From: Eledone cirrhosa
Lineage: Eukaryota
DNA length: 64,000 nt
Direction: 5' to 3'
Assembly (NCBI GenBank): GCA_964016885.1
Contig: OZ024743.1
Coordinates: 231,322,001 to 231,386,000, forward strand
Under the pieces are notes generated by a model, which was not told the DNA's origin, did no database searches, and worked only from the letters and a program-made list of their open reading frames with translations. Below are positions 3,571 through 59,736 of the stretch, one piece after another (positions within the stretch are counted from its first letter, which is position 1; every line of letters starts with the position of its first letter). A program made the translations under genes and the position numbers.

Positions 3571-3974
3571 TTATATAGACATATATATATGCTTTCATTC
3601 AGCTATGCCAATATGAAATTCCAACGTACACTTATATTCAAACAACGACTTGAAAAATAAATACTACTCGCAAATTGATGAAATTCATGACTATGACTGA
3701 TAGTCAAATCTTTGTTTTGTGTATAAAATGTTGTGTACTAGTTCAGCCACATAAACACAACTTACACTCATTCAAAAGGACTTATAGTTATGGATTAAAA
3801 ATATGCACGAATATGTAAGTAGACACACACCAACACACACATGTATATATATTTATATATGAGTGAGTTTATATGTATTTTCTCATGTATATATTTACAA
3901 ACATATTCAAAGATATATAAATATATATTCCTTTATATATATAGACACACAGATACCCGCACATACAAACAAAG

Positions 3975-4005
<31 letters not shown>

Positions 4006-4259
4006 AATATATATATGTATATAACATATATAAATATATGTGTGTGTTTGTGTGCGTGGGTTTGTGTGTTTATGTGTGTATGTATGTATATTACTAGATA
4101 TATTTAGATGTGTGTGTAAATTTACACGCGTATGTAAATGTCTGGGTTTAGTATTAAAGGTACACGCGCACACTTTATATAGCTAATATATATACATGCC
4201 CCAAACCGAGGTTGATGTACATCTATACACATTCACATTCGACGTATATATTACGTATA

Positions 4260-14131: not shown

Positions 14132-14184
<53 letters not shown>

Positions 14185-14187
<3 letters not shown>

Positions 14188-16628
14188 AAGATGAATATAA
14201 AATGAAAGTGCTTTTTTTAAAAAGGAATTTATTAGGTATTGACATATGTTTCTGTAACAGACGGAATACCTATGTATCGCTGCTTGTGTAATCATATAAT
14301 GTTAGCAAGTATTCGATAGCAAATGTATAATCAGTTATCACTTCTTCAGAGATTTTGGATAAATTGGATAAAATCAGAAACATTGAAGTATTTATATTAG
14401 TTGTAATAGAGGAAGAAGAGAGGGGAGAGTATATGACAGATGGTAATTCAATTTACAGCTAAACAAGTATATAAAGGATTTCTAATGAAAATACAATGAG
14501 TAAATGGTTTATTTTATCTAAATAAGAATTTTTGGGAGTGCCTATTTTAATATATACTTGACCAATTGAACAGTGGACAGGGCTGGTCATTTGGTGTAGT
14601 AGTATTAATGATAAAGTGTCAATTGAGGAAGGGGGAGATTTCGACTGCTACTGAATAACATTAATGTAGCCAGCTGGGGAATTGAATTAAGAAATCAGAA
14701 ATCTCATTTTATCTATAGCAGTTTATTATTAAATGGTAAATAATAGAAGAGTTGATAGAATTAAGACTAATAGAGAATGTTAATATGTATTTTGACAATC
14801 AAACGGAGATGGAGACAGGCGTTCAATCCTGGTAGTATTTGTAATATGAACATGTAGATTTTAAGCGATGGTTACAGTATAACGATCACTCTATTCTGTT
14901 ATTTAATAAAATGTTTTTGGATTTCATAATACAAACTAATTCCATATTACATAATTTACAAAATTCCTGTCCGTGGGATATTGAGGGGCCACGCTATTAT
15001 ATCCCATTTTAGGTTAAATAGTTGGTTATTTTCACGCAGCTGCCAAGCCTTGTCTGCGAGTGTTGTTACATAACGCTGGTTTTCATGTTTTATCGAGTAA
15101 CGATGTCTATAAAGGCGTGATTTGAAGGAGCTGGCTGTAGATCCCACATAGTACCACTTCTGTCTATCCGATTCGATAGTACATTTGTATATGATGTTGC
15201 GTTCAAGACACTGATTGTTCAACGGACACATTCCTGGTTGGACACAGTTACAGTTATAATTTTGCGTTGTTGTATTGTCATGGATGGGTTGATGAGGTTG
15301 CTTAGGTAGGACAGGATGTTGTTTGTTGTTTTGTGATGTTATAGCTAATGTTTTACGTGTATTGTTATGTGTTGGAAGGCGTTTATACAACCGTTTTGCG
15401 TTAAGCTTTTTTATATGTCGTTCAATATTAGGGGCGGTTGAATATGAAAGTCGAATAGTGTTAGGATTTAAGATTTTATTATATTTATGTGATGTTGGAA
15501 AGTGTTTTTTAACTAATCGAAAGAATTGTGAGGGTAGATTGGTTTTAATAGAGTTGTTATAGACCGGGTTGTACCAAATATACTCTTTACATCGCCTTCT
15601 GTTTGGTAGTGTGCGACTATTATTGTGTCTATTGCGGTAGTGTATGTATGGTGGTGATTCTGTGCTATTTCTACTCCTATGGGATTTATTTTGGGTGTTT
15701 TGGTGATCTCTGACTATATACTCTATATTATCTAGGTGTCCGGCTTTCCTAAGTGCATCATCATAATATTCGGCATGTTCTTTGAAGGTTTGTTGGTTGG
15801 ACGACAGGCGGGAGATTCTAAGAGAAACATTTCTAGGGATGGATTTAATTATAGAGAGTGGATGGTTAGAACTCGTATTTACATATTTAATGTTCTCATT
15901 TAGTTTATGGAACGGTTTAATCGTTTCTGTATTGAGATTCAAAGTAACATCAAGGAAATTGACCTCTTGAGGTTATATTCAAATGTAATATTTAATCCTA
16001 GTTCCTTAAAATGCTTTCTGATATTTTTACGCATCCTTTCTAAATTCTGGTTATTCATATGCTTAACTAATAGGAGCGCATCGTCACGGTAGATTCCACC
16101 GTGGAGATCCTTGAATTTTCCTTGTAGTCTGTGGGTGATATAAATTCCCACAAGATCTGTTACTTCCGCCGAATCATTGGAACCCATAGTAATATCAAAA
16201 TTAGAAGGTCTATCTTTGCGAACCCAGTAGCTATCATCTAATTTAACTATAGTTTTCCTCGCTTCCATAATAATTTTAATTTCAGCATCCGTAAGGTCGG
16301 AATTAGCCTTAGCGAACGAAAGAGCTTCATGTAGAGTATCAGGTGAAATTGAGGAATAATATTCATCAATATCAAACTGAATAAATTTTGATTTTTTTCT
16401 TATCAGTAATGTTATTAAACCATCTTATTGCTTCATGAGTGTTACCCCATAGTTTAATTTCTACTTTAACCTCAACTTGGGGGATAATTCTGTCTAGTAT
16501 ATATTTGCTAATTTTTGCCTATATCAGATTTAGAGGGGCATATTAGTCTAATTTTAGGGTTAGTATCGAAGTTTACCTTGTGGTCCTTCAGGTTGAAGGA
16601 TGGTATAGCTGGTGTTAAGAGTTGCGTT
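14185..16628 (-). mobile_element. Naiad-like PLE, 5'-truncated and frameshifted (RT + Zn finger + GIY-YIG + pLTR)
   Basis: Motifs KDHK..RLICPSKS, FIQFDIDEYYSSI, FDITMGSNDSAEVTDLVG, GIYRDD, WYNPVY, CNC..CPL..C, IIYKC...YYVGST. HHR-like motif at 14241-14349. Microsatellite flanks. The clade call is from recalled motif similarity. Confidence 0.9.
14956..16268 (-). pseudogene. PLE reverse transcriptase/GIY-YIG endonuclease ORF fragments
   Basis: ORFs 15939-16268 and 14956-15942 are joined by a frameshift. Confidence 0.85.
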
Positions 16629-28003: not shown

Positions 28004-28165
28004 ATATATACTTTGGGAGGGTCATGTTGCCAATAAGAAACACACGCACCAGTTGCTTTCACTTCAATTTATTATATATTTATAAATTTATATATTTACA
28101 AATCTACAAACTTTTAAATTTCTGGTTGGTTGGTTGGTTCCACAACCAGATAGTTGTTTATATAT

Positions 28166-28210
28166 AGTCATAGTCCTTTCGTCACACACTCTGTGACCTC
28201 TTCAGTGACT
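28166..28210 (-). ncRNA. Minimal hammerhead ribozyme (pLTR copy 1)
   Basis: AGTCA-CTGAAGA-G-GTCACA-GAGTG-TGTGAC-GAAA-GGAC-TA-TGACT. Confidence 0.85.
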
Positions 28211-28426
28211 GGGGATTCCTTTCTTTGTTTCTGTGCCTTTCCTTTCTTCTGTCCTACGCCATTTTGTTTCTGTGTGTGTGTTGTGTGCTCAGTTTGCGCA
28301 TGCGCCACATCCGGGTGTCTGTGTGTGTTTGTGTTCATTTATCTATTTGTTTATTTATTTATTTATTTATTTACATGTTGTTGGTTGGTTGTTTGTTCTA
28401 TGTGTGTGTGTGTTTTCATTTTGTCC

Positions 28427-31400
28427 TTAATTGTAAGTTGTGATGTTGCTGTTCCACTCATATTTTCTATTTAATTTTGGTTGTAATTCTTTTATGCTTA
28501 CTGCCTCTGTAATTTGCCTAAACATTGCATCTTTTCTGTGTGTGGATTCTATTTTTATTTCTATGTTCTCTAATTTACCCTTGTGTTCTATCTTAGCATG
28601 TTGGTAGAGCACAGATGATTCTTTATTATCTTGAAGGTCTCGCCAGTGTTCATTTATTCGTTCCCCTATACTACGAGCTGTCTAACCTATGTACACTATA
28701 TTTTTGTTTCTACATTGTCCTTCAGTACATCTTATGCTATACACTACATTTCTAGTTTTACAGTTAATATGGGGGCTTATTTTACAGGTTATACATTCTT
28801 GTCTATACATGCGGGTCTTTGGAACGGGTATGTCTTGCTAATAATTGTTTTTACGGAGGTACCTGGTCTTTCTACTATCTTAATATTGAGTTTATGTTTA
28901 TTTAGGGCCCTTCTAAATTTGTAGGCTAGTTCGCCTCTAGGGGTTCTATTGATGAACATTACACTCTGGTATTTATTGCTATCATACCATGAGTTTATTC
29001 TATTGGCCTTGTTCCTAGTTCTTTCTATTCTATTCCAAAATTTGCACCTATACAAGGGGCAGGTCCCATTTATGTCATTATTTACCATTTTTTCCCATTT
29101 GGTTCTGGCTCCTCTATACACTCTGATTCTATCTCTCTGATTGTAGCCAGAAAACTGCATACGGTGGATGAAGTGTTGTATGTGTCTCTCTAGTTCTTCG
29201 GGGTTGCACATGCGGGACAGATTTCTCATCACCCGTACCAAATCCGCAATCAGTATGTTGATTTTGGTATGGTCCGAAATGGCCGAGTTTCGGTGGATCA
29301 GATGTTTGGAAGTCATGGGTTTGGCATAATGGGAATGGAGGATTTGTTTTTGGTTGTTAATGGTATCTAACCAGAGCTCTGTGTCTAGTACAGGTAATCG
29401 ATGGTTGGGGTGTCTACTTGGGTAGTCTATAGTAACTCTAATGCTCTGGTGGATGGAGTTTGCTATTTACTGGATGCTTTCCATTGTGTTTTTCTCTTGT
29501 TCCTGACTGTTATTTAGTGGGGGTGTCTTAACTACGATGTTTATATCATCTGCGTAGCGGGAGTACATTATCAGGGTTAAGCTGTCTTCTAATTGTTCTT
29601 TAAGTTTTTGTTTAAGTCTACTGTCCCACCATACCATGAATAGGTTAGCTATGTCGCCTGCAATGCTAACACCAATGGCTGCTCCTTTCTCTTGGGCATA
29701 TGTTTTACCATTAAATTTGAACATAAGTTCCTTAAGGGTTAATTTTATGCTGGCCCCTACCGCATGTGCAATCATTTTCTTCAGTTCATCGTGGTTTCCG
29801 GGTGTCCGTATGGCTCTGGTCCACCCGTTCCATCTATCTGTGTGGGTTTTCTTGGCCATTGAGGTAATGGTAGGTGGTCTGCCTCTTGCTGGTCTTGTAG
29901 GGCACAGGTTGCTAAGGTCATAAGTGTCTAGGTAACTATTACTATCGGTAAGCTTAAGTAGAAGTCCCAGATCACTGGTATCAATCCCACGGAACTCAAC
30001 CTTGCTCTCGCTGATCATTTCTACGCATTTCTCCACAGCAAAATCCCCGTCAATAGATGGATACAGGGACACAACATCCATACTGCCTATTATGCAGTTT
30101 GTTAGGTCCCCAGATCTGTTACTCACGCCGATTCTGCTGAGGAGGTCCTCCGTGCTGCCACATACATCTGTTGCCATCTCAATGATGGGGCGTATGATCA
30201 GGGAGAGGAAGTAGGACAGTCTGTAGTTACTAGCAATGTTAGCTCCACAGACTGGCCGTGTTGTTGGTCCCGCGACAGGGTCACAGCCCGTTTTATGGTC
30301 TTTTCGAAGCCCATACAACGCCGGCACGTCATTGTTCCAGGCCTGGAAGGTGTTGGCAGTCCTTTTGTTGGGCTGCATTATATTCGTCCACATCACCATA
30401 TGGGCATTGAGGGCTTTTTCTCTATCCTCATGCTCCTGTGGTGTTACCTCTCTTGTGTTAGTGATGTGGGGTTGCATTGCCTGGATGTAGTTTGGCAGGC
30501 TGTCAACCGACATTCTGCCAGACTTGTCTGTTGGAAAGCATGCTATCTCTCCATTACGTGAGCGCTGCATGAGCTTACGCAAGCCATTTGCAGATTTTTC
30601 TCCCAGTTGCTGGGCCTCTATTCTATTATGCTACTTGCTATACTGTTCTATAATATTTCTAAGTTCGGATTTAGCAATACTAAATTGTGCTTCTGTTTGT
30701 TCATCGACCTGCGACGGCAACTGCGTGCGTTTGTTAAATGGTAAAGTCGTGGCGTAGACTCGTCGCAGGTCGAATGATTTATCGGAGGGATTATAAAACG
30801 GAGTGTTCCAGGCTGCTGCTTTATGTGTACTAGTGCTATTGTTATTGTTAGTTGCGTTGTTTCTATTTCTATTTCCCCCAACAGCCTCATGGTTGTTTCT
30901 ATGTCTCTCATAATTACTCATGTCTCTTTCCACTGGCTCAATGTTGTTATCTACCCTATTTTGTGTGTCTGTGTGTTCGTCTTGGTTATTCTCTTTGTCC
31001 TTAGTCTCCCATCTCCTTTTCCTTTTAATCTTATTACTTTCCCTTATTTCTCTGATTGCTGTGGTACTGTCATTACTTGTTTTCTGTGTCTGTGTGTTTG
31101 TTAAGATTGTGGTGGTGGTGAGAGGCATTGAATGCGTGTGTGTTGTTGTTGTTGATGTGTGCTGTTGTTGATGTGTGTTGTTGTTGTCTCCGTGTGTGTT
31201 ATCGTTGTTGTGTGTGTTGTTATTGTTGTTTGTGTCTGCGTGTCTGTTGTTGTTGTTTCTGGGTATGTTGCTATTGTTGTTGTTGTTAATGTGTGTGTTG
31301 TTGTTATTGTTGTTTGTGTCTGTGTGTCTGTTGTTGTTGGGATGTGTGTTGTATATGTGTGTGCGTATATTGTTGCTTTTGTTTTTCATGCTCCAGCGTA

Positions 31401-32117
31401 GTTTTGTAAATGATTTTTCTATTTCTGACAGACAACTAATCATATTTACCTTCTTGAATGTCGCAAATTTGGGCGGCAGACATAACGCAGATATTTCATC
31501 ATTATCTATTTTTGCGTTCCCATAAATGTTGGTGTTTTTGTTGTTGAACTCTTCTGATAATGAGGTGTCGGTCATCTTGATACCGTCAATTTTGTCGGGA
31601 TATCTATTGGTATACTCTATAGTATCCTGATTTAGCTTTGCCTGTTTAAGCCACTTTAGTTTCCTGTTAAGGTGCTTATCACATTCTTGAGTAATGTACT
31701 GTTCTTCGGGGCGTATAAGGCTTATAAATATTAGTTTCTCTGTTGGTGTGGTGATTCTAGCTACTTCTTGTATTGAGTTACGCTTTTGTTTTTCTTGATG
31801 ACTTAATTCTCTACAATCTTCTTTTTTATGTTTAGAATTAAAGTTCGTTTTAGCCTATCTGCTTGTTTTTTGGTGAGTTGTAATCTTCTAACGTCGGTAT
31901 TGATGGTGTTGGTGTAGATTCTAGAAGTGGCGGACAGCTTTATGAAGGATAGTTGTCGAGATGTTATGGTTTTTCGTAGACAACAGAACATGGTGGTTTT
32001 CAGTATCTTGTTAGCCTGGCTAAGACTTACGATATTTCGTTTCTGAATTTGTTTAGCAAGATTCTTTATCTGAAATCGTGTGTTGAAACCGATATTGTTA
32101 TACTTTGGAAGGGTCAT
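28427..32117 (-). pseudogene. PLE polyprotein (N-terminal Asn/Thr-rich region, RT, Zn knuckle, GIY-YIG), interrupted by stops and frameshifts
   Basis: PTDKSGR, LYGLRKDHK, RPVCG, SMDVVSLYPSI, KGAAIGVSIAGDIANLFM, YSRYADD, HYAKPM, NVVYSIRC...VYIG. Confidence 0.9.
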
Positions 32118-32257
32118 GTTGCCAATAAGAAACACACGCACCAGTTGCTTTCACTTCAATTTATTATATATTTATAAATTTATAATTTTACAAATCTACA
32201 AACTTATAAATTTCTGGTTGGTTGGTTGGTTCCACAACCAGATAGTTGTTTATATAT

Positions 32258-32302
32258 AGTCATAGTCCTTTCGTCACACACTCTGTGACCTCTTCAGTGA
32301 CT
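32258..32302 (-). ncRNA. Minimal hammerhead ribozyme (pLTR copy 2)
   Basis: Identical to the 28166-28210 motif. Confidence 0.85.
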
Positions 32303-33170
32303 GGGGATTCCTTTCTTTGTTTCTGTGCCTTTCCTTTCTTCTGTCCTACGCCATTTTGTTTCTGTGTGTGTGTTGTGTGCTCAGTTTGCGCATGCGCCAC
32401 ATCCCTGTGTCTGTGTGTGTTTGTGTTCATTTATCTATTTGTTTATTTATTTATTTATTTATTTACATGTTGTTGGTTGGTTGTTTGTTCTATGTGTGTG
32501 TGTGTTTTCATTTTGTCCTTAATTGTAAGTTGTGATGTCGCTGTTCCACTCATATTTTCTTTTTAATTTTGGTTGTAATTCTTTTATGCTTACTGCCTCT
32601 GTAATTTGCCTAAACATTGCATCTTTTCTGTGTGTGGATTCTATTTTTATTTCTATGTTCTATAATTTACCCTTGTGTTCTATCTTAGCATGTTGGTAGA
32701 GCACAGATGATTCGTTATTATCTTGAAGGTCTCGCAAGTGTTCATTTATTCGTTCCCCTATACTACGAGCTGTCACACCTATGTACACTATATTTTTGTT
32801 TCTACATTGTCCTTCAGTACATCTTATGCTATACACTACATTTCTAGTTTTACAGTTAATAAGGGGGCTTATTTTACAGGTTATACATTTCGTATCTATA
32901 CATGCGGGTCTTTGGAACGGGTATGTCTTGCTAATAAGTGTTTTTACGAAGGTACCTGGTCTTTCTACTATCTTAATATTGAGTTTATGTTTATTTAGGG
33001 CTCTTCTAAATTTGTAGGCTAGTTCGCCTCTAGGGGTTGTATTGATGAACATTACACTCTGGTATTTATTGCTATCATACCATGAGTTTATTCTATTGGC
33101 CTTGTTCCTAGTTCTTTATATTCTATTCCAAAATTTGCTCCTATACAAGGGGCAGGTCCCATTTATGTCA

Positions 33171-33953
33171 TTATTTACCATTTTTTCCCCATTTGGTTCT
33201 GGCTCCTCTATACACTGTGATTCTATCTCTCTGATTGTAGCCAGAGAACTGCATACGGTGGATGAAGTGTTGTATGTGTCTCTCTAGTTCTTCGGGGTTG
33301 CAGATGCGGGACACATTTCTCATCACCCGTACCAAATCCGCGATCAGTATGTTGATTTTGGTATGGTCCGAAATGGCCGAGTTTCGGTGGATCAGATGTT
33401 TGGAAGTCATGGGTTTGGCATAATGGGAATGGAGGATTTGTTTTTTGTTGTTAATGGTATCTAACCAGAGCTCTGTGTCTAGTACAGGTAATCGATGGTT
33501 GGGGTGTTTACTTGGGTAGTCTATAGTAACTCTAATGCTCTGGTGGATGGAGTTTGCTATTTGCTGGATGCTTTCCATTGTGTTTTTCTCTAGTTCCTGA
33601 CTGTTCTTTAGTGGGGGTGTCTTAACTACGATGTTTATATCAACTACGTAGCGGGAGTACATTATCAGGGTTAAGCTGTCTTCTAATTGTTCTTTAAGTT
33701 TTTGTTTAAGTCTACTGTCCCACCATACCATGAATAGGTTAGCTATGTCGCCTGCAATGCTAACACCAATGGCTGCTCCTTTCTCGTGGGCAAATGTTTT
33801 ACCATTAAATTTGAACATATGTTCCTTAAGGGTTAATTTTATGCTGGCCCCTACCGCATGTGCAATCATTTTCTTCAGTTCATCGTGGTTTTCGGGTGTC
33901 CGTATGGCTCTGGTCCACCCGTTCCATCTATCTGTGTGGGTTTTCTTGGCCAT
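33171..33953 (-). pseudogene. PLE RT C-terminal half (tandem partial copy)
   Basis: KGAAIG...YSRYVVD (catalytic DD mutated); continues by frameshift into the EN ORF 32660-33052. Confidence 0.85.
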
Positions 33954-34054
33954 TGAGACACCCCAACCATCGATTACCTGTACTAGACAAAGAGCTCTGG
34001 TTAGATACCATTAATAACCAAAAATAAATCCTCCATTCCCATTATGGCAAACCC

Positions 34055-34804
34055 ATGACTTCCAAACATCTGATCCACCGAAACTCGGCCATTTCGGACC
34101 ATACCAAAATCAACATACTGATTGCGGATTTGGTACGGGTGATGAGAAATGTGTCCCGCAAGTGCAACCCCGAAGAACTAGAGAGACACATACAACACTT
34201 CATCCACCGTATGCAGTTCTCTGGCTACAATCAGAGAGATAGAATCAGAGTGTATAGAGGAGCCAGAACCAAATGGGAAAAAATGGTAAATAATGACATA
34301 AATGGGACCTGCCCCTTGTATAGGTGCAAATTTTGGAATAGAATAGAAAGAACTAGGAACAAGGCCAATAGAATAAACTCATGGTATGATAGCAATAAAT
34401 ACCAGAGTGTAATGTTCATCAATACAACCCCTAGAGGCGAACTAGCCTACAAATTTAGAAGGGCCCTAAATAAACATGAACTCAATATTAAGATAGTAGA
34501 AAGACCAGGTACCTCCGTAAAAACAATTATTAGCAAGTCATACCCGTTCCAAAGACCCTCATGTATAGATAAGAAATGTATAACCTGTAAAATAAGACCC
34601 CATATTAACTGTAAAACTAGAAATGTAGTGTATAGCATAAGATGTACTGAAGGACAATGTAGAAACAAAAATATAGTGTACATAGGTGAGACAGCTCGTA
34701 GTATAGGGGAACGAATAAATGAACACTGGCGAGACCTTCAAGATAATAACGAATCATCTGTGCTCTACCAACATGCTAAGATAGAACACAAGGGTAAATT
34801 ATAG
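34055..34804 (+). pseudogene. PLE thumb + Zn knuckle + GIY-YIG endonuclease (inverted copy)
   Basis: CIDKKCITC...NVVYSIRC...VYIGETARSIGERINEH; premature stop. Confidence 0.85.
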
Positions 34805-35161
34805 AACATAGAAATAAAAATAGAATCCACACACAGAAAAGATGCAATGTTTAGGCAAATTACAGAGGCAGTAAGCATAAAAGAATTACAACCAAAATTA
34901 AAAAGAAAATATGAGTGGAACAGCGACATCACAACTTACAATTAAGGACAAAATGAAAACACACACACACATAGAACAAACAACCAACCAACAACATGTA
35001 AATAAATAAATAAATAAATAAACAAATAGATAAATGAACACAAACACACACAGACACCCGGATGTGGCGCATGCGCAAACTGAGCACACAACACACACAC
35101 AGAAACAAAATGGCGTAGGACAGAAGAAAGGAAAGGCACAGAAACAAAGAAAGGAATCCCC

Positions 35162-35206
35162 AGTCACTGAAGAGGTCACAGAGTGTGTGACGAAAGGACT
35201 ATGACT
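35162..35206 (+). ncRNA. Minimal hammerhead ribozyme (pLTR copy 3)
   Basis: AGTCACTGAAGAGGTCACAGAGTGTGTGACGAAAGGACTATGACT. Confidence 0.85.
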
Positions 35207-35424
35207 ATATATAAACAACTATCTAGTTGTGGAACCAACCAACCAACCAGAAATTTATAAGTTTGTAGATTTGTAAATTTATAAATTTATAAATATATAA
35301 TAAATTGAAGTGAAACAACTGGTGCGTGTGTTTCTTATTGGCAACATGACCCTCCCAAAGTATAACAATATCGGTTTCAACACACGATTTCAGATAAAGA
35401 ATCTTGCTAAACAAATTCAGAAAC

Positions 35425-35484
<60 letters not shown>

Positions 35485-37560: not shown

Positions 37561-39760
37561 CGAAGGAAATGTGGTAAGGAATCAGATGGACCATAACGCA
37601 CCAAAGTACTCAATACTTAGGGTAGTAGAGTGGGTAATAGGAACGAGTAGGAATCCCGGCGGCTGAGCTCAAGCCGTTTCGACGGGTAATTCTGGACTAA
37701 ATGAAAATGTTTATCCTGGTAAATGAATAGCCGAACTTTTCAGGGGGTAATTCCATATATGGTAGAAGTGATTGTCACAAGGATTGGTCAAAAGAGATAG
37801 AGAGTTACTATGCTTCAATTACCTTACCGCTCCTTGGACTTTGCCGAGACACTTGCGCCCATCACCGACCAGAAAAGAAATATCATCCTCTACGCCAGGA
37901 AGACAGTCCTACTTTTCGACAACTCCAAATGGATAAAAAGAGCTCCTGACTCCCCCTTCGACGTCGTTATGGGCGCGACGCATTCGGCTGAGGTCACAGA
38001 TCTTATAGGATTATTCCTACTAGTTAAACTCACCGATATGTTTCCTGCTTTCGGCCGTGGATTGTACCGTGATGATGGGCTCTTTACCCTTAAAGGGTAC
38101 AACACCAGTAGTACAGACCGGGTGCGTAAACAATTAATCAGCTTCTTCCGCGACTGGGGATTTAAAATAACCCTACAAACGTCCCTAACCCGAGTAAACT
38201 TCCTGGCGTTACCCTTAACCTCGATAATGATCTGTACTACCCATACAGGAAATCAAACGACAACCTGCACTACGTCCACCGCCTGTCGAACCATCCTAGA
38301 AATATCACCAATAACCTGGTTAAAAACATCTCCCTCCGCATATCTCGTTTGTCCGCGAATGAGCAGATATTCGAGGAACATGCGCATAATTAGAACCAGG
38401 CCCTCAAGCGGAGTAGCTTCCGGCAGGAAATATCCTATTGTCCAGCCCCCATTGGCGGAACCAGTAGGCGACACCGGCGCTCACGCAACGTAACATGGTT
38501 CAATCCTCCCCATAACGCCGAGGTGACAACACCTATCGGGAAAATCTTCATTAGGCTCATCGAAAAACACTTCCCACTACAACACCGCTACCACAACATA
38601 ATCAACAAAAATACCATCAAACTCTCCTACAGCACCACACCAAACTTTGCACAAAACATCGTCTCCTCTAACAACAAAAACTCAACCCCTATGGAAGAAA
38701 TAACCTAGATAGCAGTGGAGAACCCACCAGGAGCTGTAACTGTCCTGATGGATCCATTTGCCCCCTCGACAACAGATGCAGATATCGTAATGTTATCTAC
38801 CAGTGCAACGTGACGACGGACACCTCCAACAAAGTTTATATAGGATTAACCGCTTGTTACTTCAAGACCCGGCTATACCAACACAGACATACTTTCCGAA
38901 ACCCAGTCCGGCGTCACGCCACTACACTTTCGGGCCACATCTGGGACCTCAAAAATGACAATATAACCTATAATCTCTCTTGGTGCTTACTGTCCAGAGC
39001 CAACTCTTACACGGGAGGATGCCGTCCGTGTAACTTATGCTCAGAGGAAACATTACAAATGGTGTTTTCGACGGACCAACTCCTAAACAAGAAAGACGAT
39101 CTGGTACTGCATGCAAACAGATTGCGTAGGACATACCTTGCCCTCAAATCCCATAATGACCCGGGGGGGGGGCAACCAAGGGCTGAAACACCCCACTTGC
39201 CGACTTTGTAATGGGTAACCCTTGCTTACAAAGGTAGACGTAACTTTTCTGTAAAGATTTTCTTATATATTTTTTATCGTTTCTTCTATATTTCCTTCTT
39301 CCCCCATCCCTCCTTGTCCTTCCATCCCAGATCTCCTTCTTTGACGTCGTTCTTTTCAGCTTCTCGCCCACCCCGAAGCTGCCCTTCGGTCCTCTGTAGC
39401 CTCAGTACCCCCACCCCTCTTATTCTATGATAGAATTGCCGATTCCGCTTTTTATAGCAGATGTGCTAGACCCCCAGATACTTGCTTTCTTCTCTGATTG
39501 CTGCCCCATTTCCGTGATTTCTAGATTTCTTAGTGGTATTTCTGCTTTAGTTTCTCGTATATCAGTATTTTTGGTTAGTCTGAATTAATTTTTCGTATTA
39601 GTTTTTAATATATATTGTACGAGCATTTATGTAGTTTGTATTAGAATTTATGTATTGTAGCAGTACTTATATATATCGTATTAGTATTCATGTTTCGGGG
39701 TTCTGAATTAATATTTCCTATTAGTTTCGGGACTCTGAATTATTATTTCGTATTGTTTCG
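37559..39760 (+). mobile_element. Naiad-like PLE remnant (RT-EN on +) preceded by an inverted family E pLTR (37559-~37800)
   Basis: FDVVMGATHSAEVTDLIG, GLYRDDG, WFNPP, CNCPDGSICPLDNRC..VIYQC, VYIGLT, CNLCSEE; frameshifted. The right boundary is approximate. Confidence 0.85.
37653..37748 (-). ncRNA. Degenerate hammerhead of family E (long stem II)
   Basis: ACCCC-CTGAAAA-...-GAAA-CGGC...GCCG-CC-GGGAT. Other copies show GCCG-TC-GGGGT, which restores GUC and stem I. Confidence 0.6.
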
Positions 39761-39762
39761 CC

Positions 39763-40620
39763 ATCAATAAAACAGGGAAAAAACCACAAGTGTATGGAAT
39801 CTATAACCTATGAAAGGCATGGTAGACACACGATAAATAAAAATATAAACTAAAGTGTAAATACGTACCTCTATAACTATATAACACACGTACAAATCCA
39901 AAGAGATCTGTTTCGTCAAGAAGTTGTTGACTGAAATGAGGTAGCCCATGTTTCATCAGCGCATGCAATACTATACATTCCAGACAATTCTAAGAGAATC
40001 TAAAGCGACTGCCCAGCTACACGAGGGAGAGAGTGTCACAGCATGTTTAGGGCAGTGAACCAGTGGTGTCTGAGGGACGAGCTGCTAGAAAGGGCAGCAC
40101 AAAACCATTCAGAGAAGTGTGCTGGACCAAACAGAGAGAGAGGAAAGATTTATAACGAGCTAAATATCACGATAAATTAACGGAGCCATAGACTCTCGCT
40201 ATTCCCTGTCAATAATGTACTCAAAGGAGAAGGAATCCTGAGTTCTTTAAAATACAATATGTTGGAAAGGTAACACACTAGAGAGAGATAGTGTGCCATC
40301 AATAAAATAGGGAAAAACCACCAGTGTATGGAATCTATAACCTATGAAAGGCAGGGTAGACACACGATAAATAATAATATAAACTAAAATGTAAATACGT
40401 ACCTCTATAACTATATAACACACGTACAAATCCAAAGAGATCTGTCTTACACACGCTGATGAACCATGGGCTACTTCATTTCAGTCAACAACTTCTTGAC
40501 GAAACAGATCTCTTAGGATTTGTACGTGTATTATATAGTTATAGAGGTACGTATTTACACTTTAGTTTATATTTTTAATTATCGTGTGTCTACCCTGCCT
40601 TTCGTAGGTTATAGATTCCA
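39763..40620. mobile_element. PLE-like remnant with direct (39763-39960, 40296-40445) and inverted (40446-40620) pLTR segments
   Basis: Repeated ~150-200 bp segment; HHR-like CTGATGA...GTCAA..TTGAC-GAAA-CAGATC-TC at 40456-40512 (+) and 39903-39959 (-). Confidence 0.65.
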
Positions 40621-40627
40621 ACACCGA

Positions 40628-43371: not shown

Positions 43372-44165
43372 TATTAGAATTGGAGCTCTGAAATAGCAAT
43401 ATATATATGGATGTATATATAATGTATTTTGCAATACACTTTATGCTTAATTAAAAGCAGTTTGAAGACGGTCTTCAAAATGCTTTTAATTAAGCATAAA
43501 GTGTATTGCAAAATACATTATATATACATCCATATATATATATTGCTATTTCAGAACTCCAATTCTAATTTTTAATTTCTGCCTGACCAACAACCGCTCT
43601 GCATAATCAGCTCCTGATTATTTACTAGATTTCTATAAGAATATAACATCAATGATCTCAGTAAACAGGTGGGGTAGTTGGCCTTGATAAGCTCCAACCA
43701 AAGCGAAACAAGACTTGTCGGCTTATCTCCCCTGTTTGCTGATATCAAAGTGAGTGAATTTGTCACTACTTTAAAACAATAGCTTACGGTCTTCAAAATG
43801 TTTTTAATTAAGCATAAAGTGTATTGCAAAATACATTATAAATACATCCATATATATATTGCTATTTCAGAGCTCCAATTCTAATTTTTAATTTCTGCCT
43901 GACCAACAACCGCTCTGCATAATCAGCTCCTGATTATTTACTAGATTTCTATAAGAATATAACATCAATGATCTCAGTAAACATGTGGGGTAGTTGGCCT
44001 TGATAAGCTTCAACCAAAGCGAAACAAGTCTTATTGGCTTATCTTCCCTGTTTGCTGAGATCAAAGTGAGTGAATTTGTCACTACTTTAAAACAATAGCT
44101 TACGGTCTTCAAAATGCTTTTAATTAAGCATAAAGTGTATCACAAAATACATTATATATACATCT
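43372..44165 (+). repeat. ~316 bp tandem array with one HHR per unit and a left-end fold-back
   Basis: Unit marker GGTCTTCAAAATG at 43470, 43788 and 44104; HHR at 43680-43723 and 43996-44039; palindrome centred at ~43470. Confidence 0.9.
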
Positions 44166-44187
44166 ATATATATATATATATTTTTTT

Positions 44188-45465
44188 GATTTAATGCTCT
44201 GAAATAGCGATATATATGTGAAGACAAACATAGAATATTCGAAAATATTCTGTATGTTTATAATAAACATTTTGAAGACCTAATCGCTATAGGATAGAAT
44301 ACGTCACGTATTACAATTTGAGATTCTCGATAAAAGCAAGGGAAGTAACCTACGCGTTTCATTCTTATTAGAAATCTTCAGGATTACATATCCAATGCTT
44401 TTATCGATAATGACACAGCTAGAGACTTATAGAATACTTAGCTGTGTACAGGAACTGGTTTGAAAGAGCGGTTGCCGGTCCGGCAGAAATTAGAATTTGG
44501 ATTTAATGCTCTGAAATAGCGATATATATGTGAAGACAAACATAGAATATTCGAAAATATTCTGTATGTTTATAATAAACATTTTGAAGACCTAATCGCT
44601 ATAGGATAGAATACACAGCTAAGTATTCTATAAGTCTCTAGCTGTGTCATTCTCGATAAAAGCATTGGATATGTAATCCTGAAGATTTATAATAAGAATG
44701 AAACGCGTAGGTTACTTCCCTTGCTTTTATCGAGAATCTCAAATTGTAATACGTGACGTATTCTATCCTATAGCGATTAGGTCTTCAAAATGTTTATTAT
44801 AAACATACAGAATATTTTCGAATATTCTATGTTTGTCTTCACATATATATCGCTATTTCAGAGCATTAAATCCAAATTCTAATTTCTGCCGGACCGGCAA
44901 CCGCTCTTTCAAACCAGTTCCTGTACACAGCTAAGTATTCTATAAGTCTCTAGCTGTGTCATTCTCGATAAAAGCATTGGATATGTAATCCTGAAGATTT
45001 CTAATAAGAATGAAACGCGTAGGTTACTTCCCTTGCTTTTATCGAGAATCTCAAATTGTAATACGTGACGTATTCTATCCTATAGCGATTAGGTCTTCAA
45101 AATGTTTATTATAAACATACAGAATATTTTCGAATATTCTATGTTTGTCTTCACATATATATCACTATTTCAGAGCATTAAATCCAAATTCTAATTTCTG
45201 CCGGACCGGCAACCGCTCTTTCAAACCAGTTTCTGTACACAGCTAAGTATTCTATAAGTCTCTAGCTGTGTCATTCTCGATAAAAGCATTGGATATGTAA
45301 TCCTGAAGATTTCTAATAAGAATGAAACGCGTAGGTTACTTCCCTTGCTTTTATCGAGAATCTCAAATTGTAATACGTGACGTATTCTATCCTATAGCGA
45401 TTAGGTCTTCAAAATGTTTATTATAAACATACAGAATATTTTCGAATATTCTATGTTTGTCTTCA
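44188..45465. repeat. 312 bp tandem array with one canonical HHR per unit and an internal inversion at ~44612
   Basis: GTAATC-CTGAAGA-TTTCT-AATA-AGAAT-GAAA-CGCG-TA-GGTTAC at 44673-44715 (one stem II substitution), 44985-45027, 45297-45339 (+) and 44345-44387 (-). Confidence 0.92.
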
Positions 45466-45727
45466 TATATATATATATATATATATATAAATATATATAT
45501 ATATGGGATAATAAGTTATCGTTATAGGTGATCCACTTAGAGGTAGTCCGGTTAGAGTACTCCGTGTTGTGAATGGTTTTAACGTGAAACTTAGTTTGAC
45601 TCAACAAGATGCTTCCAAAGTGTTGCAGCGAGTTCGCCGTAGTTTCTATGCAGGTCATAATTGGAGTAATAATAGTTAAAGAAAGAAGAGTAACATGGTT
45701 GGCTGTACAATAAGGGCTTTATTAAAA

Positions 45728-45838
45728 TTGCTGACAATTGTTTCGTTGATCTGTTGCGTCTAGAGTTGGCTAATCGCTTGATGCTGCGGTAATTGATCTC
45801 CAATACGTTGTTTACAACCAGTCAACACATCAGAGCAA
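45728..45838 (-). ncRNA. Hammerhead-like motif with long stem II insert
   Basis: TTGCT-CTGATGT-GTTGA...TCAAC-GAAA-CAATTG-TC-AGCAA (A9 substituted). Confidence 0.6.
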
Positions 45839-46259
45839 GTGGATATGAAAATAATACGCAAGGCATGGCTTTTATAGAGGAGTGTTTTTAAACTAAAACA
45901 ATAACATCAGTAACAAAATAGCTCTATAGCGAATAATTAAAACAATAACATCAATAATAAAAAAAACACGCATGGTAAATAAACAGAGATGATACAGATG
46001 TATGAAGTGACATGCGAAATCTAAGATAGGGTACATTAAAAGTAGATAAAGGAATAAAATAATAAAATGTACTTAGAGTCAGATTTTAGGGTCTCAACTG
46101 TAAGTGCAATTATGAGAGATTTAGATACAAATGAGCTGTGGATCTGAAAAATGAACAACAATAAAACGGACATTAATTTATGGTTTGACAGATAAATGCT
46201 TGTAGTAGATATTTCCTAGTGAGATTGATGGAGGGAGTGTATAGAGATTTATGGTTCGA

Positions 46260-47505: not shown

Positions 47506-47522
<17 letters not shown>

Positions 47523-47527
47523 TATAT

Positions 47528-50405
47528 AAACGGAAAAAATGAAACGAAACTTCATTTCACACTCTTAGTACGGCTGTTAGTTAAATATAAGTATGTACAC
47601 GTACATACATATATGTATACTGACGTACAGTAGTATGTATATATATATATATACATACATGCACACATATATATATGTACGTATGGATTTACCGAACATT
47701 TATTATAATGCTCGGTGGGTTTGTAAACAAACATCCCGTATTGAGCCGTAGTGTCCAGCAACCATCGTTGCTCGTTTGTTCAACACTGTAAAAGGAACGC
47801 TGTACTAGTTTCAGGCTTATTAGCTATCGTCAGCAACGTATACCTTCCTGCCAGATTGTTGAACGTATTTACTTACCTTATGCATATTAACGGCTGGGTA
47901 GCCCAATCTGCATACCGGGTGGGTTAATCGGCCGGGTGCACCGAAAACGATAAAGGGAAAAAATTTAAAAATAAAATTACAAAGAATCAGTCCGGAGCCT
48001 TGTAGTTATATAATAGATGTTTGGTGACGTGTGGACAACGTGTGAAAAATTCACCTCTCGGGTTTAGGCAATCACTATTACGTAATCTCTTTTGGACAGT
48101 TATTCGGGCGTCAATACATAAGCCGCACGTCTGATTTCCCCTTGCGTATGGCTTGAACTTAGTGATGGCTTTCCATTGAATGGAGTACCCTATACGTGAG
48201 TCCTTGAGGGACCATACGTGGCTCGCGAGTTTCGTGGATGAATGTCTGTCCGGGTACCTGAAGGTAGACTGGTGGTTCAGGAAACGCTCCTTGAATCGGC
48301 CCTCCGCCATGCCCACATAGTATTTGATATCCTGGGGTTCGTTTGGTCGGTTGGAAGTGACCACAGCTTCATAGATTACAGCTGGTGTGTTGCATTGTTG
48401 TTGAAGGGGGCAAGCTTCAGGCTTACGTCAAGAGCACCTGGTGGGGTGTTGCTCCTAGGAATGCTGGTGATGTGGGGCTTCATGTACTTAGCGCAGGAGT
48501 ATCCTAGTTTAACTTTGTGTCGGTTAAAGATGGAGCGGTATTTATGACCTATGGGGAAGTGTCTATCTAAGAGGGTTAGACTTTTTTTCCTACATTGGTT
48601 TTAACGTTGAGTGAGAAGGGAGGAGAGAACCAGATAGTTTGTCTATTGATGAGCTTACTTTTTTAATGGTGTTGTTGCTAGTGCGAGAGTAGCTGATAGG
48701 TTGTGAGAAGCCGCTGTTAGCCAACGCCGTGTTATAGTAGGGTGATGTCCAGCACCCATCGGTGCGGTACATCGTCAGCATCGTATACCTTCCTGCCAGA
48801 TGGTTGACCGTCTGAAAGTACATACTTTCCTCATGCATATTAACGGCTGAGCAGCCTAATTTGCATATTGTGTGAGTTCAGTCGGCCGGGCACAGCGAAA
48901 ACGATATATGGAATAGAATGAAACGAAATTTCATTTCTCACTCTTAGTACGGCACATACTTAAATGTAAGTATGTTTGTATGTATACGTACATACATATA
49001 TGTATACAGACGTACAGTAGTATGTATACATATACATACATGCACACATATATATATGCACGTATCGGTTTAACGAACATTCATTATAATGCTAGGTTTG
49101 TTTGTTTGTAAACAAACAATCAGCCCGAATTACACCGTACAGTGTTTAGGCAACCACGTCACCTTTTTGTTCAACACTTACACAGGAACGATGTACTAGT
49201 TTCAAGCTTATTAGCTATCGTCAGCATCGTATACCTTCCTGCCAGAAGGTTGAACTTCTGAAAGTATATACTTTCCTCATGCATATTAACGGCTGAGCAG
49301 CCTAATTTGCATATAGAGTGAGTTCAGTCGGCCGGGCACACCGAAAACGATAAATGGAATATTATATATATATATATATATATAAAGTACGTATACGTAC
49401 ATACATATATGTGTACAGACGCACAGTAGTATATATATATACATACATGCACATATATATATATGTACGTATGGATTCACTGAACATTTATTATAATGCT
49501 CGGTGTGTTTGTAAACAAACATCCCGAATTAAGCCGTACAGTGTCTAGCAACCATCGTTGCTCATTTGTTCAACCCTGACAAAGGAACGCTGTACTAGTT
49601 TCAAGCTTATTAGCTATCGTCAGCAATGTATACCTTTCTACCAGATGATTGAACGGCTGAAAGTATATACTTTCCTTATGCATATTAACGGCTGAGCAGC
49701 CTAATTTGCATATCGAGTGAGTTAATTGGCCGGGGTACCGAAAACGATAAACGGAAAAAAATTAAACGAAATTTCATTTCTCACTCTTAGTACGGCTGTT
49801 ACTTAAATATAAGTATATATACGTACATACATTTATGTATACAGACGTAGAGTAGAATGTATATATATACATACATGCACACATATATATATATGTACTT
49901 GAAACTTACAGTAGTATGTATGTATATATATATATATATATACATACATTCACACTTATATATATGTGTGCATGTATGTACCCCGGTCGATTAAACTCAC
50001 TCGATATGCAAATTAGGCTGCTCAGCCGTTAATATAAATGAGGAAAATATATACTTTCAGACATTCAATCATCTGGCAGGAAGGTATACGTTGCTGACGA
50101 TAGCTAATAAGCTTGAAACTAGTACAGCGTTCCTTTGTCAGGGTTGAACAAATGAGCAACGACGGTGCCTAGACACTGTACGGCTTAATTCGGGATGTTT
50201 GTTTACAAACACACCGAGCATTATAATAAACGTTCGGTGAATCCATACGTACATATATATATATGTGTGCATGTAAGTCATATATGTATATACATACTAC
50301 TGTACGTCTGTATACATATATGTATGTACGTATACATACTTATATTTAAGTAACAGCCGTACTAAGAGTGAGAAATGAAATTTCGTTTCATTTTTTTTCG
50401 TTTAT
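47528..50405 (-). mobile_element. Naiad-like PLE remnant with tandem ~400-450 bp HHR-bearing pLTR units and a terminal inverted unit (49985-50405)
   Basis: HHR CG(A/T)TG-CTGACGA-TAGCT-AATA-AGCTT-GAAA-CTAG-TA-CA(T/G)CG at 47798-47838, 49189-49229, 49588-49628 (-) and 50089-50129 (+); EN fragment 47987-48745. Confidence 0.88.
47987..48745 (-). pseudogene. PLE thumb/Zn finger/GIY-YIG fragment
   Basis: IWFSPPFS, RHFPIGHKYRSIFN..KLGYSC, CS*RKPEACPLQQQC..VIYEA, YYVGMAEGRFKERFLNH, CGLC, CPH. Confidence 0.85.
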
Positions 50406-50562
50406 ATATCTATGCATATATATATATATAATAGGAACTGGAGTCATATGACTCCAGTTCCTCAGTGAATTAACAATCCAACAAGGAACTGGGCATATCA
50501 GAGTATTGACAATAGTATACACCTAAACAACATATGTACTTGTCTATACCATACTAATTCAA

Positions 50563-57500: not shown

Positions 57501-57668
57501 ATATTGGGATGTATCATGAAAGATAGTAAATCATCATTGACAAAGGTTAAATTCCTACCGTCAATATATGTTTAACAGAAAGTATGCTGCTTATAAATAG
57601 CAATACGCACACACACATACATATATATGTATATATGCAAATGTATATATATATATATATATATATAT

Positions 57669-59698
57669 AGAATTAGTATATCTACCAACATGTGTATACA
57701 GATGTATACCTATGCTAGCAAATATATATGTTATGTCTTAGTACCTTTGTGGTTCTATGCAGGGGGATGCAGAAACATTATATGAAAGACGTAAAATAAG
57801 AAAATTAAAAAAATTAAAAATTAACTTACTTACTAAAATTTTCACTCCAACTAATTAGTTTCTGTAAGGGAGTAAATATAGTTACGTAATGTAACTACAG
57901 AGAATTCCTTACGTCATCGGGAGTATATTCTCAGCTAAGTTCCCAGACAATGCGCGAACACTAGGAACCCATATAAAAATAATAATTCAGTGGATGGAAT
58001 AAAGCTAGCAAGGACTAAATTCCAGAGCACTGAAAAAATTCACTGCCTACTGGGTCAGTGGCAAATTATAAAGAATCAATCACGTGACACTGAGGTCAAA
58101 CAGTGAGGAGTTGGATGGTATTATGACAAGTACCTACTACTACTACCATGAACCATGGCAGTCAATTTTGGCAAGTTTTACTCAACAAATAATTTGGAGA
58201 TAAATATAGAGAATTAGTATATCTACCAACATATGTATACAGATGTATACCCATGCTAGCAAATATGTATATTATGTCTTAGTACCTTTGTGGTTCTATG
58301 CAGGGGATGCAGAAACATTATATGAAAGACGTAAAATAAGAAAATTAAAAAAATTAAAAATTAACTTACTAAAATTTTCACTCCAACTAATTAGTTTCTG
58401 TAAGGGAGTAAATATAGTTACGTAATGTAACTACAGAGAATTCCTTACGTCATCAGGGAGTATATTCTCAGCTAAGTTCCCAGGCAATGCGCGAACACTA
58501 GGAACCCATATAAAAATAATAATTCAGTGGATGGAATAAAGCTAGCAAGGACTAAATTCCAGAGCACTGAAAAAATTCACTGCCTACTGGGTCAGTGGCA
58601 AATTATAAAGAATCAATCACGTGACACTGAGGTCAAACAATGAGGAGTGGGATGGTTTTATGACAAGTGCCTACTACTACTACCATGAACTATGGCAGTC
58701 AATTTTGGCAAGTTTTACTCAACAAATAATTTGGAGATAAATATAGAGAATTAGTATATCTACCAACATATGTATACAGATGTATACCCATGCTAGCAAA
58801 TATATATGTTATGTCTTAGTACCTTTGTGGTTCTATGCAGTGGGATGCAGAACAATTATATGAAAGGCGTAAATTAAGAACATTTAAAAAATTAAAAATT
58901 AACTTACTTACTAAAATTTTCACTCCAACTAATTAGTTTCTGTAAGGGAGTAAATATAGTTACGTAATGTAACTACAGAGAATTCCGTACGTCATCAGGG
59001 AGTCTATTCTCAGATAAGTTCCCAGGCAATGCACGGACAATAGGAACCCATATAAAAATAATAATTCAGTGGATGGAATAAAGCTAGCGGGGACTAAATT
59101 CCAGAGCACTGAAAAAATTCACTGCCTAATTTTTAAAATTTTCTTATTTTACGTCTTTCATATAATTGTTCTGTATCCCCCTGCATAGAACCACAAAGGT
59201 ACTAAGACATACCATATATATTTGCTAGCATGGGTATACATCTGTATACATATGTTGGTAGATATACTAATTCTCTATATTTATCTCCAAAGTATTTGTT
59301 GAGAAAAACTTGCCAAAATTTAAAGCCATGGTTCATGGTAGTAGTAGTAGGCACTTGTCATAATACCACCCCACTCCTCACTGATTGACCTCAGTGTCAC
59401 GTGATTGATTCTTTAGAATTTTCCACTGACCCAGTAGGCAGTGAATTTTTTTCAGTGCTCTGGAATTTACTCCCCGCTAGCTTTATTCCATCCACTGAAT
59501 TATTATTTTTATATGGGTTCCTAGTGTCCGCGCATTGCCTGGGAACTTAACTGAGAATAGACTCCCTGATGACGTAAGGAATTCTCTGTAGTTACATTAT
59601 GTAACTATATTTACTCCCTTACAGAAACTAATTAGTTGGAGTGAAAATTTTAGTAAGTAAGTTAATTTTTAATTTTTTAAATTTTCTTATTTTACGTC

Positions 59699-59703
<5 letters not shown>
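57669..59703. repeat. ~540 bp tandem array with one HHR per unit and a terminal inverted unit (59129-59703)
   Basis: ACTCC-CTGATGA-CGTAAGG...CCTTACA-GAAA-CTAATTAG-TT-GGAGT at 59561-59642 (+) and 57844-57924, 58380-58461, 58922-59003 (-). No ORF. (TA)n flanks. Confidence 0.92.

Positions 59704-59736
<33 letters not shown>

Follow-up and report, generated by a model that had tools for sequence, protein, structure and literature searches.

The systems closest to the repeat described here are the non-LTR retrozymes, which carry hammerhead ribozymes (HHRs), and the Penelope-like elements (PLEs). In one coral genome, type I HHRs number more than 6000 and fall into 16 families (PMC7229834). From shared HHRs, co-occurrence, and pLTR similarity, the retrozyme papers regard PLEs as the likely mobilizer of retrozymes and leave the mechanism open (PMC7229834; bioRxiv 10.64898/2026.07.22.740005). 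PLE insertions are described as partial tandems with 5' truncation; many have an inverted copy at the 5' end and a tail of 30-40 bp that is often found at one end only, and nearly all PLE families of the Hydra clade target (TA)n (Craig et al., 2021; PMC8557442). A purified PLE protein cut and extended both strands, with two internal start sites as the boundaries of the tail (Frangieh et al., 2024; PMC11167929). According to PMC4209133, the canonical metazoan type I HHR has a 6-bp helix I, a 4-bp helix II, and a helix III of 1-2 bp with a palindromic loop and is active as a dimer, whereas the min-HHR of PLE pLTRs has a helix II of 7-8 bp, a helix I of 4-5 bp, and a dispensable helix III.

Here we analyzed a stretch of 64,000 nucleotides of Eledone cirrhosa DNA, referred to as the window, that harbors a 312-bp repeat in two opposed arms. 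We consider it highly likely that this element is a young non-LTR retrozyme insertion whose arms were both laid down in one step by the RT/endonuclease of a PLE.

Results

The 312-bp element is a young head-to-head insertion in a (TA)n run

The insertion at 44184-45474 is built from a 312-bp unit and has two arms that meet head to head, a minus arm of 431 nt and a plus arm of 863 nt (Table 1). A preliminary description of this DNA had proposed a tandem array of near-identical 312-bp units, and TRF analysis of the plus array at 44612-45474 bore this out with a period of 312, 2.8 copies, and 99% matches; compared to the middle plus unit, each of the five arm segments shows 0-3 differences. The inverted arm (44184-44614) is complementary to 44758-45188 at 99%, and the orientation flip, previously placed at about 44612, could be assigned to 44612-44614. 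The array indeed covers 44188..45465, as had been proposed, but its true ends lie at 44184 and about 45474, where both enter TA. As (TA)n is present on both flanks, any target-site duplication is unreadable.

The array had been called non-coding, and in agreement with this, the longest ATG frame within it has 34 codons. The GC content at 44001-46000 is 0.325, which is under the retrozyme bound of 50%. Regarding the properties by which non-LTR retrozymes are recognized, the unit of 312 bp lies within 150-450 bp, every full unit has a type I HHR, and the element is young, non-coding, and dispersed at many loci, so that the earlier assignment to a retrozyme-like family holds. The 312-bp element is a young copy of an abundant, non-coding, retrozyme-like repeat with a predicted self-cutting motif.

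Table 1. Coordinates of the 312-bp insertion, its structural features, and associated elements
Feature	Position	Strand	Details
Left arm	44184..44614	minus	431 nt; unit positions 147-312, then 1-~262/265
Left arm outer 3' end			B type (with tail); then short A run, then (TA)n
Right arm	44612..45474	plus	863 nt; two full 312-bp units and positions 1-239
Right arm outer 3' end			A type, in AU tract 232-239; continues as (TA)n
Head-to-head junction of both 5' ends	44612..44614		3-nt microhomology, letters fitting either arm
Left (TA)n target run	44165..44183		common to the 312 element and the right end of the 316-bp element
Right (TA)n target run	45465..45504
Unit positions 232-272	44843..44883	plus	AU tract (A end) to B end; tail interval of ~27-33 nt
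Type I HHR copy 1	44673..44715	plus	core 44679; predicted cleavage after 44709
Type I HHR copy 2	44985..45027	plus	core 44991; predicted cleavage after 45021
Type I HHR copy 3	45297..45339	plus	core 45303; predicted cleavage after 45333
Type I HHR copy 4, inverted arm	44345..44387	minus	core 44381; predicted cleavage at 44351
Extended stem I around HHR	44649..44737	plus	one per unit; covaries between families
Hairpin just upstream of A end	44801..44834	plus	unit ~190-223
Neighboring 316-bp insertion	43373..44175		flip ~43470; HHR with U3:A8 core at 43684; one B-type and one A-type end
PLE with Neptune-like motifs	28007-35432	minus	partial tandem; flip 33957; HHRs at 28205, 32297, 35167
Hydra-like PLE remnant	14180-16424	minus	CxCX5C linker visible in two of the three remnants
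Hydra-like PLE remnant	37801-40624
Hydra-like PLE remnant	47520-50440
Hydra-type PLE	L214: 4965-7278	minus	open 758-codon frame directly after HHR

The hammerhead motif has canonical type I geometry

The core, the 6-bp stem I, the ACGCGU palindrome, and the GUA site, all claimed in the preliminary description, are present in each of the four copies, together with a 4-bp stem II above a U-U pair. Copy 1 has a private C-to-A exchange at 44689 by which one stem II pair is lost. Four HHRs at an exact 312-bp period had been described; three are in register, but the fourth sits on the opposite strand. When the unit was shuffled with preservation of dinucleotides as a chance control, the HHR pattern with a stem I of at least 6 bp turned up in 2 of 5000 shuffled units. 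A search of the 64-kb window with Rfam at the gathering score gave 0 matches, which we do not count as evidence against the HHR. By the definition in PMC4209133, the sequence of the motif fits the canonical metazoan type I geometry. The min-HHR label had to be dropped, as helix II has 4 bp, helix I has 6 bp, and helix III is present; of the wording "canonical minimal HHR", only the first part applies.

Helix III of the monomer would require a loop of 2 nt, and the self-duplex of the ACGCGU palindrome is calculated at -7.5 kcal/mol. As the monomer is thus constrained and the palindrome can pair with itself, the HHR of the 312 unit is predicted to act as a dimer. Rare variants in 11 core sites numbered 3 of 170 with 6 expected, a difference too weak to show purifying selection.

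The HHR is embedded in an extended stem I, for which the second copy gave a fold z of -7.26. Upstream of the A end, the 8-bp inner stem of a hairpin is paired in nine of nine aligned family members, and this hairpin is a candidate RT-binding element. In the structure alignment of nine copies, 20 of 38 named pairs had changed on both sides in a compensatory manner, and 96% of the cells were paired, compared to 42-51% with the partners slid. As these nine sequences are related and represent about four families, such counts are not independent events. The sole common change in the catalytic core sits at the free N7 position.

The 312-bp family is one branch of a larger clan

A count of genomic copies, as the preliminary description had suggested, gave at least 969 exact matches to the 34-nt HHR core at many loci of the 3.0 Gb genome, with 0 in the control. 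A DNA search with the unit yielded 232 matches in 40 scored candidate places, and full-length units among the matches listed were 96-100% identical. Of the 30 loci taken along contig C1 in the order of the list, 27 belonged to a 310-bp sister type.

The preliminary description had regarded the repeat as a second, independent family, and this view could not be upheld. The 312-bp and 316-bp units are colinear from end to end with 64% identity and an alignment score of 241 (best of 100 shuffles, 125), with compensatory changes in every HHR stem. A family of ~320 bp is likewise a colinear homologue of the 312 unit (66% identity, score 250, shuffle maximum 125). The core pair switches between families from C3:G8 to U3:A8, and a motif common to the related families has 21,934 matches in the genome (control, 0). 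Because the 312, 316, and ~320 units are colinear homologues, the 312 family is one branch of a larger clan. At 3974-4241 of locus L134, we also noticed a third variant of the core, in which C3:G8 is combined with G at position 7, on a scaffold of the 316/320 type.

The 312 element is nested in the terminal TA run of the neighboring 316-bp insertion at 43373..44175, which is a separate, adjacent event of a homologous family. By eye, the segment 43129-43340 resembles a fragment of a PLE terminal repeat with an HHR-like core; it ends in the TA run that took up the 316-bp element.

Inverted copies carry one end of each of two types

We compiled 58 distinct insertions from three sources. Eighteen came from 30 loci of the DNA search, of which 12 were dropped as overlapping views of one insertion; 30 represent all loci behind the first 100 listed matches to the 34-nt core (in list order, contig C1); and 10 were hand-picked from the DNA search, several of them for long arrays. 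The head-to-head inversion is the family norm and not peculiar to the locus in the window, as 46 of the 58 insertions, and 24 of the 30 in the list-order set, have the inverted form. All 46 consist of a minus arm followed by a plus arm, with the 5' ends central and the 3' ends outermost.

The outer ends fall into two classes, A ends at unit positions 221-240 (around 239, in the AU tract 232-239) and B ends at 255-273 (around 266). One A and one B end were combined in 43 of the 46 inverted copies; one copy had two B ends and two had an atypical end. With free choice of ends, one A and one B in 43 of 44 has a binomial p of 5e-12. Within the window, the 312 element has its B end on the left and its A end on the right, and the 316-bp neighbor likewise has one end of each type. 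The 12 one-armed copies ended at A in nine cases and at B in three. In 94 of 104 cases, the outer end entered TA/AT. At many A ends, the letters just before had been replaced by TA, which is what primer pairing would do. The interval between the two end positions (44843..44883 in the first plus unit) would be the gap separating two RT start sites.

The inner 5' ends are spread over the whole unit. Permuted start points, which had been proposed as a rolling-circle signature, are thus found at the inner ends only, the outer 3' ends occupying two fixed positions. Where the arms meet, an overlap of at least 2 nt was seen at 28 of 41 junctions compared to 21% in simulations, a count that BLAST edges may inflate, and none of the 46 junction positions recurred.

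Two loci deserve mention on their own. The only insertion with two B ends (L065, 2056-4153) has the same short interrupted TA flank, inverted, on both sides, which suggests a copied flank or a DNA-level duplication. In L064 (2489-2754), one arm contains a jump between unit positions 242 and 273 that roughly repeats the A-to-B interval and possibly represents re-initiation at the second start site.

The regularity of the ends bears on the origin of the inverted arms. Long, near-perfect inverted arms and tandem units would be expected of a satellite or of a fold-back or MITE-like DNA element, in which the arms would be terminal inverted repeats or replication fold-backs and the HHR a passenger. 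However, the two ends are systematically unequal, and this A versus B asymmetry largely refutes the idea. The arm lengths of the same insertion are also uncorrelated (Spearman 0.19, p = 0.23), 12 of the 58 copies are one-armed, the center differs at each locus, and the HHR stems covary across families. We therefore regard a DNA element of this kind as very improbable.

An assembly artefact from chimeric or fold-back long reads is less probable still and can practically be set aside. It is true that among the contigs of four sequencing runs none (0) spanned the whole unit. The tandem joint of the unit is nevertheless present in an independent short-read assembly, as are (AT)n loose ends behind 44850, the A position, in seven contigs of run X1. 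One end rule also applies at 43 loci with locus-specific junctions and again in a coding PLE family (see below).

Each insertion represents one haplotype

At common variant sites, the two arms of one insertion differed at 1 of 380 comparisons in the 312 type and at 1 of 232 in the 310 type, compared to 1154 of 9563 and 200 of 4797, respectively, between insertions of the same type. Rare substitutions were evaluated in arms with at least three covering units (n = 123): 107 were confined to one unit, eight were present in all units, and eight in some. Eight rare variants were found in all covering units of the two arms, as in L061 with 19 of 19 units. As 107 of the 123 substitutions are private to a unit, most arrays formed before their mutations arose, and the eight shared by a subset of units point to some later turnover at the DNA level or to multi-unit templates.

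Coding PLEs of the same genome share the insertion anatomy

The 312/310 family displays a PLE-type signature, with an inverted 5'-truncated copy in 46 of 58 insertions, a one-sided tail of about 30 nt in 43 of 46, and (TA)n at 94 of 104 ends. We are accordingly highly confident, even more than for the reading of the window locus as a whole, that PLE-type machinery is behind the insertions of this family.

PLEs are also present in the window itself. The element with Neptune-like motifs, a label that rests on motifs and not on a tree, has two TA-flanked ends about 65 nt apart and broken frames. The Hydra-like remnants at 37801-40624 and 47520-50440 carry HHR motifs, and the latter contains tandem and inverted HHR repeats of ~400 bp. 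The PLE family represented at 47987-48427 is abundant and older, with 85-91% protein identity among the best 150. A further array, at 57659-59707, has a 541-bp unit, a head-to-head flip at 59127, and TA on both ends; no HHR core was found on either strand of this unit.

An HHR profile run over the window and 183 loci pointed to a Hydra-type candidate in locus L214. Its frame contains the motifs RWR, DKT, CxCX5C, and GIY-YIG, and by these motifs, without a tree, the element fits the Hydra description. The family is very young and abundant: identity among its best 150 endonuclease copies is 97-100%, and 13,425 matches were obtained with a 27-nt pattern taken from its HHR. In 12 of 12 minus/plus pairs of the L214 type, a short end, 11-22 nt past the cleavage site, was combined with a long end at 88-94 nt, corresponding to a tail of ~69 nt; some of these loci had been chosen for opposed HHRs, with the end types unseen at choice. 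As a coding Hydra-type PLE pairs its ends in the same manner, the A and B rule characterizes PLE insertion in this genome, and the retrozyme obeys it.

This shared anatomy also speaks against mobilization of a SINE-like element by a LINE. Twin priming, as for L1, produces head-to-head inversions with microhomology at the junction and could in this respect account for the arms, and a few B ends (L001, L069) have a short A run. However, both ends of the 312 family are fixed internal positions of a tandem unit, a general poly(A) tail is not seen, and where one arm starts internally is independent of where the other was primed. With the coding PLEs of the same genome built alike, we consider a LINE improbable, if slightly less so than a fold-back element.

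The 312 element is not an autonomous PLE, as neither the array nor any copy of the family among the loci examined is linked to an RT/EN or RT/GIY-YIG frame. Regarding a possible partner, the L214 family resembles the 312 family in age and target, and its HHR matches the 312 unit at 25 of 28 letters over core and stem II. Outside this part of the HHR, nothing aligns between the two, and a search in one orientation for a chimeric HHR junction of L214 type and 312 unit gave 0 matches. That the young L214 family is the source of the enzyme is a possibility that we rate as rather doubtful. Among the loci of the older family at 47987-48427, 1 of 30 had a 25-nt match to the unit, and none had a longer one. 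Neither in 26 loci with the shared motif nor in 30 loci of a more diverged relative was a unit in sense associated with an RT/EN frame, and a 3'-region profile over the window and the 183 loci gave no convincing match outside the family. Two joins with a PLE that is Neptune-like by its motifs, in L010/L151 and L147/L152, were considered as template-switch chimeras and not accepted, as both are single events for which nested insertion plus deletion is a sufficient explanation; the L010/Neptune-like junction is single-copy, and L147 has long-type ends on both sides.

Discussion

How a PLE could produce two arms with unequal ends can be envisaged as follows. Multi-unit transcripts would self-cleave as HHR dimers and may circularize; for Xenopus retrozyme dimers, eight of nine were reported without in vitro cleavage (bioRxiv 10.64898/2026.07.22.740005). 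A PLE protein would bind the RNA near the conserved hairpin (unit ~190-223) and cut both strands of a (TA)n run. One 3'-OH would anneal to the AU tract (232-239), and the second would prime at ~264-272, 27-33 nt further 3'. Each cDNA would be extended over a variable length, often over several units, and finally the cDNA 3' ends may anneal by a few bases and copy each other, resulting in the inverted pair.

The strict pairing of A and B ends, together with the single haplotype of each insertion, favors that both primings took place on one RNA molecule, which would need strand displacement; we hold this to be reasonably probable. Two independent RNAs would hardly yield such pairing. With respect to the template, a circle is mildly favored over an uncleaved linear multimer. 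That 65 of 86 arms are longer than one unit, with lengths compatible with an exponential distribution (KS p = 0.10), suggests a circle as the simplest source of long arms, and none of the 46 junctions recurs, although an RT run through the source locus might repeat them. Inner 5' ends within 5 nt of the HHR site numbered 5 of 104 with 3.7 expected; this lack of an excess argues only against cleaved linear monomers, which we rejected as templates.

PLE-type insertion from an uncleaved linear multi-unit transcript, or from two RNAs, without any circle and with long arrays growing later by unequal exchange, is nonetheless a serious contender, to which we assign somewhat less than an even chance. 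In agreement with such a route, HHR cleavage was dispensable for insertion in vitro (PMC11167929), later local amplification is favored in bioRxiv 10.64898/2026.07.22.740005, 8 of 123 variants are common to subsets of units, and L065 combines two B ends with the same short flank on both sides. It is a variant within the best explanation and not an alternative to PLE mobilization. From genomic data, a circle and an uncleaved multimer are indistinguishable. None of the six runs listed is recorded as RNA. Contigs of two of the runs fit both templates as well: runs X4 and X6, which stand under other organism codes and whose run type is unrecorded, each contain one closed contig of 342 and 340 nt, respectively, that matches 44612-44923 and corresponds to the unit length plus 30, of a single haplotype at depths of 18 and 12. 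As collapsed tandem DNA would give the same contigs as a circle, they do not separate the two.

In its most complete form, the proposal is a single event in which a PLE RT/endonuclease dimer, starting from both ends of the cut (TA)n, would prime a single circular ribozyme RNA at two sites about 30 nt apart, roll round with strand displacement, and let the cDNAs prime each other. We put this forward tentatively, with less confidence than the linear route just discussed. If true, such double priming on one circle would explain jointly why the PLE tail is one-sided, how the inverted arm and the second strand are made, and how retrozyme tandem arrays originate. As exact priming positions are predicted on a 312-nt RNA, the unit offers a compact substrate on which to study how PLE inversions and tails, as well as retrozyme arrays, arise.

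Since roughly four fifths of its insertions are inverted, the family could supply hairpin RNA, and a read-through transcript across both arms of the window copy would, by its sequence, fold back over 431 bp. As the sense arms point apart, such a transcript would need transcription from a flank. In transgenic Drosophila, siRNAs matching inverted Penelope arms have been described (PMC3681739).

As an element, the 312-bp repeat is ordinary, and its value lies in the evidence on mobilization. Non-LTR retrozymes, their proposed PLE origin, and PLE inversions and tails are already in print. The new part is the insertion anatomy: the 312/310 family bears the PLE integration signature directly and countably, as seen in the ends, one A and one B in 43 of 46 inverted copies, and in the single haplotype of each insertion. 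In the literature searched, with supplements and subscription papers outside its scope, we found no description of a paired-end inverted anatomy for a retrozyme; in the text searched of PMC7229834 and of Li, Clavereau & Pollet (2026), inverted arms, fixed paired ends, a tail, or a (TA)n target are not mentioned for retrozymes.

In comparison to known systems, the 312 family agrees with the metazoan non-LTR retrozymes (PMC7229834; bioRxiv 10.64898/2026.07.22.740005) in its non-coding tandem units within 150-450 bp, each bearing a type I HHR, its low GC content, its many dispersed copies, and the presence of PLEs in the same genome, and with axolotl HHR_Amex2 in the U-U pair below stem II. Expression and circularity have been shown for retrozymes of coral, mussel, and axolotl (Cervera & de la Pena, 2020; PMC7229834). 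With EN+ PLEs, especially those of the Hydra clade (PMC8557442; PMC11167929), it shares partial tandems, 5' truncation, the inverted 5'-truncated copy, a tail of ~30 nt on one side, the HHR in the repeat, and the microsatellite target. Unlike these, the unit has no RT or GIY-YIG frame, and in the coding families surveyed, only the 28-nt HHR core showed homology to the unit. Non-autonomous PLEs of Chlamys such as MRC1 (PMC8557442) are similarly non-coding, multicopy head-to-tail insertions moved by PLEs, but are described as generally having 3' sequence in common with an autonomous family and as belonging to a clade without canonical HHRs; the 312 unit has a canonical HHR, and among the loci examined, no autonomous partner sharing its 3' sequence was found. 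Finally, the Anolis PLE initiated without homology (PMC11167929), whereas the A end of the 312 family appears to pair the (TA)n primer with the AU tract of the unit.
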